Shown: positions 1 to 6,193 of the stretch, piece by piece
How the letters are laid out: each line of letters opens with the position of its first letter
How positions within the stretch are numbered: the first letter of the stretch is position 1
IMG/VR virus record: IMGVR_UViG_2663762857_000022
From: a virus
Taxonomy: Monodnaviria > Loebvirae > Hofneiviricota > Faserviricetes > Tubulavirales
Reading direction: 5' to 3' (one strand)
DNA: 6,193 nt
Program-made: the position numbers and the translations under genes
The notes under the pieces: model-generated
The model's database searches: none
The model's input: the letters and a program-made list of their open reading frames with translations, nothing else
What the model was told of the DNA's origin: nothing

Positions 1-1331
<1,331 letters not shown>

Positions 1332-1344
1332 TTACCCCGCAAAA

Positions 1345-1704
1345 TTACTTGCCAACATTAAGCCCATTTGATTTAAATAAATCATAAACCAATCGATACA
1401 CTCTATCCTTATAAAGATATATGTATGAAATAAATTGAACATGGAGGATGATATTAAAACAGTACTGAATATTTAAAGGAAGGTAACTGAATGCAACTAC
1501 AATAACATCGAGTTTATTAACATCGGAGATTTGACGAATAATAAAATTGACGGCAGATACAAGAGCATAATATGAAGTGTAGCAAAGACCAAGATAAGAA
1601 AGGAGCTTAGCCCATGCAACAGCTTTATCACCGATAACTCCTGCAATGAAACGTAGTGATTTTAAAACAACATCAACAAAAAAAGCACCTAAAATGGCCC
1701 ACAT
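1345..1704 (-). CDS. Minor coat protein pVI-like (virion cap / membrane protein)
   Basis: 119 aa, very hydrophobic with several predicted TM segments, similar in size to f1 pVI (112 aa). It sits between pIII and pI as in Ff. Its ATG (1704..1702) overlaps the pIII TGA stop (1706..1704) in an ATGA arrangement. Confidence 0.6.
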   Translation of the reverse strand: MWAILGAFFVDVVLKSLRFIAGVIGDKAVAWAKLLSYLGLCYTSYYALVSAVNFIIRQISDVNKLDVIVVAFSYLPLNIQYCFNIILHVQFISYIYLYKDRVYRLVYDLFKSNGLNVGK

Positions 1705-2990
1705 CAGAGTTTTACCTCACGTTCAAATAATGTACGGCGAGAAATAACAAAAACGCGTAACATGGTTATCATATAAATAGCATATTCAAGAACAGAACGA
1801 ACATAATCGTCATAAGCTTTTGCAAAATGGCTTGTATCAATCTTGAAATTAATCGCGCCAATCAACGGAAGATTAAAGCTAAACTGTAAAGTAAAAGGAA
1901 GAGCAGTTCCATTATTTGTATTTACCAGTTTGTCAATATTAACTGTAAGCCAATTGTTATTATCATGACTCTCACTTCCCTGTCCTGGCAAATAATGCGA
2001 AAGCTCCCCTAAAGGGAAATCCCCATCAGGCAAAGAAGAAGCTATATTCTGACTAATATCTTTAATACCATTGTCCAGTGAATTTAATGCATTATTCATA
2101 TCAGCCTGAGAAACAGAAAAAGCATTATTTAAATCATTCACTGACACCCATATTGTTTTTAACCAGCCCAAAATACCATCAAGCCAGCCATTGTCATCGC
2201 CGGATGAGCCACCGGATCCTGAACCTGAACTACCGCTACCGGATGAACCGCCGGAGCCCGAGCCGGAGCCACCGCTACCGGATGAACCACCGGAGCCAGA
2301 ACCTGAACCACCACCGGAACTGCCGCCGCCTGGGTTACCACCACCGGAACTGCCACCACCTGAGCTACCGCCATCCTCCTTACCATCGGAGAATGCAGGA
2401 TCTACAGCAACTGGTTTCCAGTCGGCAGTACAAACTGTATCATCATCGGGATTACAAATAAGAGGATTGCCGGTTGCCTCATAAATACACCCCTGCACAT
2501 TAACATAACGGGTCCCGTCATCACCTTTATAAACATCAGAAAAAGTCATACCATCAAGAACCGGACGAGAAAGACAAATCTCGTCAGTTGGCGGCTTATT
2601 ATATTCAGGTGTCAAATCCCCCTCACCACCCTGAAAAGCAAGGGCGCAGGCTGTCCACTTTTGCTTGTCTGAATCCCAGACTTTATATGCTGACCACCGG
2701 GCACGGACAAAAGACCCGACAGTCGAAGGTGCATTAACAGGCGTGGAAAGTGGCACACCACAATAATGAATTATTCCGGAACATGCGTCATAACTGCCCG
2801 AACCACAGAAAAGATGACCGGCCCCCCGGGATAATTTAGTTGAAACACCTGCATCTGAATAAGCTGTCCTGCAGGATGAATGGCCTGCACACTGAACAAG
2901 TGCATCCGGATTTTCTTTCTCTTCAGCGAAAGAAAACGAGGAAAAGAACAAAAACAGAAGCGGAATAATAAAGTGAATCAAACAAAACAC
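1704..2990 (-). CDS. Adsorption / minor coat protein pIII-like (receptor-binding attachment protein)
   Basis: 428 aa. N-terminal signal-peptide-like hydrophobic stretch (FCLIHFIIPLLFLFFSSFSFA), a Cys-rich N-terminal region (about 10 Cys), a long Gly/Ser linker (residues ~207-264) and a hydrophobic C-terminal anchor region, typical of g3p. It lies directly downstream of the coat-gene terminator as in Ff. The start codon is uncertain: GTG at 2990 (AGGA immediately adjacent) or TTG at 2981 (AGGAG 8 nt upstream). Confidence 0.75.
   Translation of the reverse strand: MFCLIHFIIPLLFLFFSSFSFAEEKENPDALVQCAGHSSCRTAYSDAGVSTKLSRGAGHLFCGSGSYDACSGIIHYCGVPLSTPVNAPSTVGSFVRARWSAYKVWDSDKQKWTACALAFQGGEGDLTPEYNKPPTDEICLSRPVLDGMTFSDVYKGDDGTRYVNVQGCIYEATGNPLICNPDDDTVCTADWKPVAVDPAFSDGKEDGGSSGGGSSGGGNPGGGSSGGGSGSGSGGSSGSGGSGSGSGGSSGSGSSGSGSGGSSGDDNGWLDGILGWLKTIWVSVNDLNNAFSVSQADMNNALNSLDNGIKDISQNIASSLPDGDFPLGELSHYLPGQGSESHDNNNWLTVNIDKLVNTNNGTALPFTLQFSFNLPLIGAINFKIDTSHFAKAYDDYVRSVLEYAIYMITMLRVFVISRRTLFEREVKL
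2199..2372 (-). repeat. Imperfect tandem nucleotide repeats encoding the Gly/Ser linkers of pIII
   Basis: Repeated units such as ccgctaccggatgaaccgccggagcc[c/a]ga[g/a]cc[g/t]ga[g/a]cca and accaccggaactgcc[g/a]cc[g/a]cc are visible on the plus strand. The translation is GGSSGGGSSGGG...GSGSGSGGSSGSG. Confidence 0.7.
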
Positions 2991-3001
2991 TCCTGGTATG
3001 A

Positions 3002-3026
3002 TTAAAAAAGCGCCCCGGAGGGCGCT
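3002..3026 (-). terminator. Rho-independent terminator between the major coat gene and pIII
   Basis: Plus strand reads ttaaaaaa-gcgccc-cgga-gggcgct. On the minus (sense) strand this is a 7-bp GC-rich stem (3009-3015 / 3020-3026) with a 4-nt loop followed by a TTTTTTAA tract. Ff phage has an intrinsic terminator at this position immediately after gene VIII. Confidence 0.7.
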
Positions 3027-3041
3027 GTCATTAAATAACTA

Positions 3042-3302
<261 letters not shown>

Positions 3303-3308
3303 TTAAAA

Positions 3309-3479
3309 TTAATTAACAGCATCACTGAACATCCGGCAGACCAGAGTGAAAATAACACCAAGACCAAAGCCAAGAAGCCAGCAGACAATCCAGACATAAA
3401 GAACGGACCAGTAAAGCTCCCCGTCCTGTACGCCAGAATTCAGTGCGGATAAAACACCGCTGAAATCAAATTCAGTCAT
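3309..3479 (-). CDS. Small hydrophobic protein, candidate minor coat protein (pIX-like); start uncertain (ATG 3479 or 3512)
   Basis: 56-67 aa with one strongly hydrophobic segment (LYWSVLYVWIVCWLLGFGLGVIFTLV). It occupies the position between the pVII-like ORF and the coat gene as in Ff. No recognisable sequence motif. Confidence 0.4.
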   Translation of the reverse strand: MTEFDFSGVLSALNSGVQDGELYWSVLYVWIVCWLLGFGLGVIFTLVCRMFSDAVN

Positions 3480-3612
3480 AATAACGCTGAACAGTAATGC
3501 TTTGTGAGTCACAGGCGCGAATCAGTTTTATTCCGATGCCAAAACCTGAAGAAAATAAAATCATTGCAGGCGCAGCAAATAAAACAAAGTTCAGAAAATC
3601 AGCGTCAGACAT
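3472..3612 (-). CDS. Small hydrophobic protein, candidate minor coat protein (pVII-like); start taken at the internal ATG 3612
   Basis: The ORF track gives 3472..3666, but the first 18 codons would overlap the upstream gene. The ATG at 3612..3610 lies 4 nt after the TGA (3619..3617) of the 141-aa ORF, with AAGG 9 nt upstream, giving a 46-aa protein MSDADFLNFVLFAAPAMILFSSGFGIGIK... with one TM-like helix. Confidence 0.4.
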   Translation of the reverse strand: MSDADFLNFVLFAAPAMILFSSGFGIGIKLIRACDSQSITVQRYYD

Positions 3613-3616
3613 ATCA

Positions 3617-4042
3617 TCAGCCTTTTTCTTTACCTGCGGGCAGTGCACCCAGCGGCTGACCGTCAAAACGTTTCATGGAGCCGGAAATAAAACGATACCA
3701 GACACCATGACGTTCTGAGCCTGTCGCCCATGAGTTAACATCCACCGTGAGATAAACAGGTTTGCCCTGCAAATCAGGACATGAATTAAAAAATTTAAAA
3801 TCCTCCTCAGTACAGGAAAAGCGCTCATGCTCCTCACGGCGGACTTTTAATTTTCGGTCCTCATACGGATAGGCAATAACAATGGCATATTTGGGTTTAG
3901 CCTCAGGGTTATAATGAGAACCCGTGGGTTTTAACTCCTCATCATTTATGACAGTGACGTGAATAAAATATCCCGCCATTGTCATGCCTGAGGTAAAACC
4001 CTCAGGGGAAGGAAACGGAAAACTGTCGTAAATTTGATTCAT
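3617..4042 (-). CDS. Putative ssDNA-binding protein (gene V / RstB analogue) by position; function not confirmed
   Basis: 141 aa with a strong RBS (GAGGAG 8 nt upstream of ATG 4042), immediately downstream of Rep and upstream of the small coat-like ORFs, which is the gene V position in Ff. Basic and aromatic rich (KPVYLTVDV, GVWYRFISGSMKRF). Larger than Ff pV (87 aa), closer to the CTXphi RstB size class. No direct motif recognised. Confidence 0.4.
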   Translation of the reverse strand: MNQIYDSFPFPSPEGFTSGMTMAGYFIHVTVINDEELKPTGSHYNPEAKPKYAIVIAYPYEDRKLKVRREEHERFSCTEEDFKFFNSCPDLQGKPVYLTVDVNSWATGSERHGVWYRFISGSMKRFDGQPLGALPAGKEKG

Positions 4043-4072
4043 AAATCAGACTCCTCAATGTTAAAAATTCAG

Positions 4073-6088
<2,016 letters not shown>

Positions 6089-6120
6089 TCAATCATTCAA
6101 GATGAACCGCAAGGCTCAGC

Positions 6121-6142
6121 ACTGATACTTGACGGTATCAGT
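6121..6142. promoter_or_regulatory. Perfect 8-bp inverted repeat (actgatac-N6-gtatcagt), candidate operator overlapping the predicted rep transcription start
   Basis: actgatac (6121-6128), ttgacg spacer, gtatcagt (6135-6142). It sits directly downstream of the predicted -10 in the direction of rep transcription, a typical operator position. Confidence 0.3.
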
Positions 6143-6143
6143 T

Positions 6144-6172
6144 ATGCTATTATCAAACTTAACAAACGTCAA
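6144..6172 (-). promoter_or_regulatory. Putative sigma-70 promoter for the rep operon
   Basis: On the minus strand: TTGACG (plus 6172..6167), a 17-nt spacer, then TAGCAT (plus 6149..6144). It lies about 70-100 nt upstream of the rep ATG. Sequence-only prediction. Confidence 0.3.
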
Positions 6173-6193
6173 TAATGTTGATACCAATAAATA

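Follow-up and report, generated by a model that had tools for sequence, protein, structure and literature searches.

The gene V protein (pV) of the Ff filamentous phages (M13/f1/fd) has 87 aa, forms a homodimer that binds single-stranded DNA (ssDNA) cooperatively and represses the translation of gene II. Translation of gene VII is coupled to that of gene V in these phages, and a terminator is located after gene VIII. A review describes RstB of CTXphi as similar to the proteins with which other filamentous phages bind ssDNA, and a role in integration has been reported for it as well (PMC3545932). We here examine a gene in the corresponding position of the IMG/VR virus record IMGVR_UViG_2663762857_000022, a stretch of 6,193 nt which is referred to over its whole length as the window. 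According to a six-frame listing of open reading frames (ORFs) and profile scans the window is a filamentous-phage (inovirus) genome with all phage genes on the minus strand, and it is an Escherichia coli filamentous prophage with Ff-like gene order. A preliminary description had assigned the 141-aa ORF at 3617-4042 to the position of gene V and had proposed an ssDNA-binding protein, at the same time calling it atypically large and of uncertain identity. We found that this gene probably encodes the phage’s own ssDNA-binding protein, the counterpart of Ff pV and of CTXphi RstB. Judged by its sequence, the 141-aa protein is a separate, uncharacterised family in a well-known role, and it is predicted to be a soluble protein with an oligonucleotide/oligosaccharide-binding (OB) fold, the nearest structural neighbours being the single-stranded DNA-binding protein (SSB), mitochondrial SSB (mtSSB) and PriB.

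Coordinates, strand, start codon and length of the ORF were confirmed exactly: it runs on the minus strand from an ATG at 4042 to a TGA at 3617-3619 (141 codons), between Rep and a block of VII/IX/VIII-like genes. On the minus strand the upstream sequence reads TGA(Rep stop)-CTGAATTTTTAACATT-GAGGAG-TCTGATTT-ATG, i.e. TGA-N16-GAGGAG-N8-ATG, with 30 nt from the Rep stop to the start of the ORF, and the consensus GAGGAG 8 nt before the start bears out the strong ribosome-binding site (RBS) claimed earlier. RefSeq calls a 426-nt coding sequence (CDS) of identical size in related prophages, the assembly collection indexes the identical protein in 398 blocks, and it or close relatives are present in 22 IMG/VR viral contigs. 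A chance ORF was ruled out by the RefSeq calls, the 398 indexed blocks and the homologues in other inoviruses; the ORF is a real, conserved gene. Its product has no signal peptide or transmembrane segment and is hydrophilic, with an isoelectric point of 6.1 and a C-terminus that reads ...GQPLGALPAGKEKG. Its homologues, referred to here as the family (phrog_30648), are likewise hydrophilic, with 14% aromatic residues, a charge near neutral and basic or neutral tails. The close relatives used for the ratio of nonsynonymous to synonymous changes (dN/dS) are separated by 3-7 differences only.

The single profile that the protein matches over its full length is phrog_30648, listed with ‘unknown function’ (E 1.2e-95 over 1-141/141), which is also matched by the distant members P0020, P0028 and P0023 (5e-26, 4e-21 and 2e-7). 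No significant match was obtained in Pfam, NCBIfam or the PDB sequences, in agreement with the earlier remark that no motif could be recognised. A word-indexed search of 5.8 billion proteins yielded 17 clusters, all with at least 53% identity and mostly from E. coli, while an exhaustive hidden Markov model (HMM) search of 1.84 billion cluster representatives gave 10 matches at E<=1e-3, including a repeat protein that is spurious; three more family members, all divergent, came from a second profile search. In total the family members range from 131 to 146 aa, show 25-90% identity to the 141-aa protein and include proteins of other inoviruses. Ten columns of the family alignment are invariant (G15, F16, G24, F26, K51, V96, W105, G113, W115 and Y116). 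Neither megablast with the whole window nor tblastn with the protein found a relative among 50,697 phage records; no isolated GenBank phage is related at the DNA level, and it has been recorded solely in the form of a prophage or an uncultivated viral genome (UViG). A scan of genome contigs with the E. coli alignment, in a collection that holds one genome per species, gave no match. In the literature we found no paper characterising the 141-aa protein or its E. coli phage group.

The only Pfam family with any signal was PF17426 (Putative_G5P), the top Pfam match in 9/17 members, where it covers the beta4-beta5 region. The score reached 13.5 bits against a gathering cutoff of 25 and extended over model positions 65-102 of 108 (~35 residues); the best E-value among members was 0.006, and the matches were confined to the closely related E. 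coli subgroup (0/8 divergent members). Being below the cutoff, local and absent from all divergent members, membership in PF17426 was rejected and is not counted as evidence. The mention of this family in the literature concerns small rolling-circle replication (RCR) plasmids.

We then turned to structure prediction for an OB fold, which had been proposed as a check in the preliminary description. AlphaFold2 with 12 close sequences gave an unusable model (predicted local distance difference test, pLDDT, of 41). With 19 sequences, including six divergent ones, the pLDDT was 74, with a predicted template-modelling score (pTM) of 0.66 and a pLDDT of ~87 over residues 20-100; the five models of this run ranged from 55 to 74, and the alignment is shallow, with an effective number of sequences (Neff) of about 2.8. 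The modelled elements are strands at 18-31, 52-62 and 67-77, a helix at 79-86 and strands at 95-101 and 116-118, which is the classical OB-fold order beta1-beta2-beta3-alpha-beta4-beta5 as predicted from this alignment. The loop between beta4 and beta5 (106-113) is of low confidence and is flanked by the invariant residues W105, G113, W115 and Y116. In the model the extra length over Ff pV would consist of an N-terminal extension, a long beta1-beta2 loop (32-51) and the helix between beta3 and beta4. The best 19 matches of a Foldseek search against the PDB were only SSB, mtSSB, PriB and OB proteins of the editosome (E from 1.8e-3 and probability 0.96-1.00, with a TM to target of 0.4-0.6). In agreement with this, the named matches among those listed for viral models were almost only phage SSBs. 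Ff gene V protein (gVP) and Pf3 SSB were absent among the fold matches listed, and among these matches the model appears nearer to cellular OB domains of the SSB/PriB type than to any phage gVP structure. The OB topology of the 19-sequence model and the ssDNA-binding OB proteins as its nearest structural neighbours thus support the proposed gene V analogue, which would bind ssDNA. As findings that would speak against it, the preliminary description had named a structure without a nucleic-acid-binding fold and strong homology to an unrelated family; neither was encountered, since OB topology is predicted and the profile searches (Pfam, PHROGs, NCBIfam, PDB sequence) revealed no strong homology to any such family. 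It could be argued that the prediction itself is unreliable, and that the protein is conserved and essential to the phage with a different structure and mechanism. The shallow alignment (19 sequences), the failure of the 12-sequence run, the spread between the models and fold scores that are all weak to moderate argue for this possibility, which we consider quite improbable.

Local matches to papain-like peptidases were also seen below the threshold (E 0.06-0.6), originating from an NSW...G.WY motif. The papain-like peptidase fold comprises ~200 aa with catalytic Cys/His/Asn. Where PepC has its catalytic His, the alignment shows a different residue, and N103, which aligns with the Asn, is replaced by G, A or S in some family members. 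A papain-like cysteine peptidase (C1) was rejected because the catalytic residues are not conserved, 141 aa are too short and structural support is lacking. The broader alternative would be a small beta-barrel, OB-like or of another kind, whose function has nothing to do with DNA; examples are a regulator, a factor for immunity or host modulation and a degenerate domain of the papain type. Of all alternatives we regard this one as the least probable: the peptidase features are missing as just described, no peptidase appeared in the fold searches, SSB-class proteins dominate all three of them, the protein is hydrophilic and devoid of signal peptide or transmembrane segment, and its slot in the genome together with the cassette swap described below indicate a role in replication or packaging.

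Regarding the genomic contexts, we examined E. coli phages beside hipBA, E. coli phages with an IS110-family transposase, a Psychromonadaceae metagenome-assembled genome (MAG) and four metagenomic lineages. In every one of them the family member is located directly after a Rep of the P2 GPA type, which opens the replication module, sometimes with one tiny ORF in between, and is followed by genes for small membrane proteins and the coat, then by pIII, pVI, Zot and usually a secretin gene. Two adjacent sister prophages are present on L004 (1-13787), a contig that originates from the sample of the Psychromonadaceae MAG. Their regulatory regions share 95% nucleotide identity and the starts of their structural modules 91%, while the DNA between is unrelated: prophage one contains a GPA-type Rep, interrupted by an insertion of the IS21 family of insertion sequences (IS), and a 131-aa family member, whereas prophage two contains Rep_trans and a bona fide RstB (PF07459, E 5e-26). 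The two become homologous again ~27 nt ahead of the stop codons of both slot genes. From this alignment pattern it follows that ‘Rep + family member’ has been exchanged for ‘Rep + RstB’ as a cassette in nature. The earlier suggestion of an RstB-like binder therefore holds for the role, as the swap places the family exactly at RstB’s spot, but not for the sequence, for which hhalign detected no relation.

The close association with Rep would also suit a replication accessory rather than a packaging protein, i.e. an SSB/PriB-like OB partner of the GPA-type Rep in a two-protein replication module. Such a partner might stabilise or act on the nicked origin or the strand being displaced, or it might bring in helicase, primosome or replisome factors of the host; the sequestration of ssDNA for assembly would be carried out by something else or would not be needed, and the partner could coexist with a classical gVP. 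The family indeed follows GPA-type Rep in every context examined and is inherited with it, Rep and slot gene were swapped as one unit in L004, and PriB structures are among the best fold matches. A further case is L006, a phage with three putative SSB-type genes. Downstream of its family member two overlapping paralogous ORFs of 144 and 111 aa (5529-6280, 54% mutual identity) head the structural module, and the 111-aa ORF matches SSB profiles of the Ff type (phrog_1199, E 3.5e-7; PF02303, E 0.028). L006 has Rep (65%), the family member (76%) and the secretin (48%) in common with L012/L013, but not the coat protein, pIII, pVI and Zot, which identifies it as a mosaic that may have inherited one SSB from each parent. 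Two observations weigh against a counterpart of gene V: the fold scores are modest and indicate similarity at the level of the fold, not demonstrable homology, and the Ff-type gVP-like genes in L006 leave room for a Rep-linked role.

Nevertheless we hold the accessory function to be unlikely, although it is the most plausible of the alternatives. As far as can be read from the genomes, no other candidate for gene V function exists in the window phage or in any other phage examined except L006; in particular, no other gVP-capable gene was found in the window phage, L003/L005, L011, L012, L013 and L016-L019. The mosaicism of L006 alone accounts for the presence of two SSB-type genes. Other inoviruses with GPA-type Rep (fs2, VFJ, Dolos, Vaf1 and a pre-CTX variant) carry an unrelated slot protein of 104-106 aa (phrog_5738), which is annotated as ssDNA-binding in the VFJ and Dolos records, and GPA-type Rep therefore requires no specific partner; other proteins seen in the gene V slot have 104-114 aa. 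Finally, the SSB gene travels with Rep in Ff and CTXphi too (in part PMC3545932).

If the 141-aa protein is the ssDNA-binding protein of the phage, its gene would be transcribed together with Rep from a promoter upstream of Rep and translated efficiently from the GAGGAG site. Accumulating during infection or induction, the protein would coat the plus strand that is displaced in Rep-initiated rolling-circle replication. The coating would block the synthesis of the complementary strand, i.e. conversion to the replicative form (RF), and in this way would make the phage pass from replicating RF to producing ssDNA. The nucleoprotein rod thus formed would be delivered to the export apparatus of Zot(pI) and secretin, and there the 141-aa protein would give way to the major coat protein. 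Binding would involve the invariant aromatic residues F26, W105, W115 and Y116 plus K51, which flank the flexible beta4-beta5 loop, and alignment and model together suggest base stacking by the aromatics in the manner of SSB. Oligomerisation or cooperativity may depend on the first 17 residues, which are conserved, and on the short tail rich in Pro and Gly, and the protein may feed back on the translation of Rep, as Ff pV does on gene II.

The features of the window are compiled in Table 1.

Table 1. Phage-genome features within the 6,193-nt window, in the order of the minus strand.
Feature	Position	Strand	Evidence
Promoter-like site upstream of Rep, -35 at 6172-6167, -10 at 6149-6144	6121-6172 (including palindrome)	-	consensus matches only
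Rolling-circle replication initiator (Rep), P2 GPA type, 666 aa	4073-6073	-	PF05840 E 4.2e-48; phrog_91 ‘nicking at origin of replication’ E 1.6e-127
Shine-Dalgarno GAGGAG, 8 nt before the ATG at 4042	4051-4056	-	direct sequence reading
141-aa predicted OB-fold protein, phrog_30648, gene V slot	3617-4042	-	ORF, profile match, RefSeq CDS in relatives, AlphaFold2 model
46-aa hydrophobic pVII-like gene	3472-3612	-	sequence; RefSeq CDS in relatives
56-aa pIX-like small membrane protein, 8-nt overlap with pVII-like gene	3309-3479	-	sequence
80-aa major coat protein precursor, signal-peptide-like N-terminus	3042-3284	-	weak phrog_1646 ‘major coat protein’ match
Terminator-like intrinsic hairpin (7 pairs, 6 of them G-C), then TTTTTT	3009-3026	-	directly 3’ of coat gene
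pIII-like protein	1704-2990	-	PF05357
pVI-like protein	1345-1704	-	ORF listing
Zot/pI ATPase	279-1328	-	PF05707

The ATG of the pVII-like gene is located 4 nt past the stop of the 141-aa gene (GGC TGA TGAT ATG), which makes translational coupling of the pVII-like gene plausible; ahead of it there is only a weak purine-rich stretch, inside the 3’ end of the 141-aa gene. By analogy to Ff, the spacing at this junction and the overlap of the pVII- and pIX-like genes are compatible with coupling along V-VII-IX. The hairpin behind the coat gene is a candidate for the terminator that closes a Rep-to-coat transcription unit. Just downstream of the promoter-like site and ahead of Rep we noticed a perfect palindrome, ACTGATAC-N6-GTATCAGT, at 6121-6142; promoter-like site and palindrome together form a candidate promoter/operator of the operon that holds the 141-aa gene. 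Beyond ~6076 rightward the relatives diverge and carry different regulators (a 62-aa ORF, a 108-aa helix-turn-helix (HTH) protein or a 153-aa HTH protein), and the diverging regulators near 6076-6193 look like heteroimmune variants, comparable to rstR of CTXphi. Within the pIII-like gene tandem repeats of 39 and 30 nt at 2200-2373 encode a Gly/Ser-rich linker. Near-identical relatives have versions of this protein between 425 and 461 aa long, a variation that suggests expansion and contraction of the repeats. At the other end of the window, bases 1-369 on the plus strand are an internal fragment of argS (PF00750, E 4e-51; 95-99.5% identity to E. coli argS), fused directly, with the junction at 369, to a zot/pI gene without the final ~84 codons; the window contains no secretin gene. 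Because this junction was not found in any complete E. coli genome searched, it represents either a true rearrangement or a chimera of the assembly.

When 5,426 complete E. coli genomes were searched by megablast, a few dozen chromosomes contained the phage part of the window (369-6075), with 91-99% identity. The annotation of these copies comprises a ‘replication endonuclease’, at least six ‘hypothetical proteins’ and a protein with a Zot domain, plus a GspD-type secretin in full-length copies. Related copies adjoin hipBA, often as tandem arrays, and lie immediately beside it in L001, L020 and L021. Head-to-tail tandem prophage arrays in E. coli chromosomes were seen in L022/L023 (GCA_977066965.1), L001 and L002, with at least three successive Rep genes in L023, where the copies are about 9.16 kb apart. 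In E. coli, dif is located near hipBA, and the tandem arrays at this site resemble those of Xer/dif-integrating phages such as CTXphi and YpfPhi. A sister group of E. coli inoviruses (L016-L019; CP027437, CP076709, CP028741), with family members at 54-57% identity, is found at other chromosomal sites and carries an IS110-family transposase (DEDD_Tnp_IS110/Transposase_20) immediately upstream of Rep, which suggests a transposase-mediated rather than Xer-mediated integration; several of these copies contain numerous IS elements. The phage also occurs, as a copy with 98% identity, at 83653-91498 of OV141394.1, a 363-kb record filed as a Citrobacter youngae plasmid, and the phage group is therefore not confined to E. 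coli chromosomes.

RefSeq and PHROGs give the 141-aa protein as ‘hypothetical’ or of ‘unknown function’, although hundreds of E. coli assemblies contain exactly this sequence. Most of the genomes listed as matching come from human isolates, and the filamentous prophages of this group include the tandem arrays beside hipBA. Most probably the protein represents an ordinary role with an unfamiliar sequence, from a small family that appears without function in every database consulted here. The slot after Rep in inoviruses is filled by unrelated sequence families, of which four have now been seen, and the swap between the sister prophages in L004 is a clean natural illustration of Rep and SSB being exchanged as a pair. 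We see the main value of these results in the annotation of a prophage group that is widespread in E. coli; they do not reveal a new mechanism.

When compared with the known systems, the 141-aa protein fails all sequence tests for Ff pV, RstB, Pf1 gene 5 protein, fs2 ORF104 and cellular SSB/PriB, and fits phrog_30648 only. With Ff it shares the slot in the order Rep-V-VII-IX-VIII-terminator-III-VI-I-IV, the strong RBS, a pVII-like gene that follows almost without a gap and, by prediction, a small OB-class beta-barrel of five strands. In contrast to Ff pV, the 141-aa protein does not match PF02303 even at E<=1 or E<=10, its model has a helix between beta3 and beta4 and an N-terminal extension, the isoelectric point is 6.1 versus 9.2, and the partner Rep is of the P2-GPA instead of the gII type. 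RstB is the positional equivalent, as L004 carries Rep_trans and RstB exactly where the neighbouring prophage carries GPA-type Rep and the family member. Both phage groups include dif-associated tandem prophages, going by the proximity of dif and hipBA, and the family occupies the slot after Rep in what the tandem relatives beside hipBA and the L004 swap mark as inoviruses of the Xer/dif-integrative type. The two differ in that PF07459 is not matched, in an hhalign probability of 0.1% against the bona fide RstB and in the family of the partner Rep.

The Pf1 gene 5 protein (phrog_1144), annotated as ssDNA-binding, is similar in size and isoelectric point (144 aa, 6.25), and an inovirus SSB of about 140 aa is therefore not unprecedented; ‘atypically large’ is justified against Ff pV but not for inoviruses overall. 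Again phrog_1144 is not matched (hhalign probability 0.5%), and the extra length of the Pf1 protein is a long Pro/Gln/Ala-rich C-terminal tail, whereas in the 141-aa protein it resides in the N-terminus, the beta1-beta2 loop and the helix. The fs2 ORF104/VFJ orf104/Dolos family (phrog_5738) shares the slot after a homologous GPA-type Rep (29-33% identity to the window Rep), but is shorter (104-106 aa versus 131-146 aa), and phrog_5738 is not matched (hhalign probability 0.2% against a 5-sequence alignment). Compared with SSB (PF00436) and PriB, the 141-aa protein is phage-encoded within an inovirus replication module, has no match to them in Pfam, NCBIfam or the PDB sequences and, unlike SSB, has no acidic C-terminal tip of the DDDIPF type, its tail ending in ...LPAGKEKG. 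In structure, however, bacterial and mitochondrial SSB and PriB are its best neighbours according to the model, with beta1-beta2-beta3-alpha-beta4-beta5 aligned over 88-98 residues, and an invariant Trp of the family ends beta4 in a placement comparable to that of W88 in E. coli SSB.
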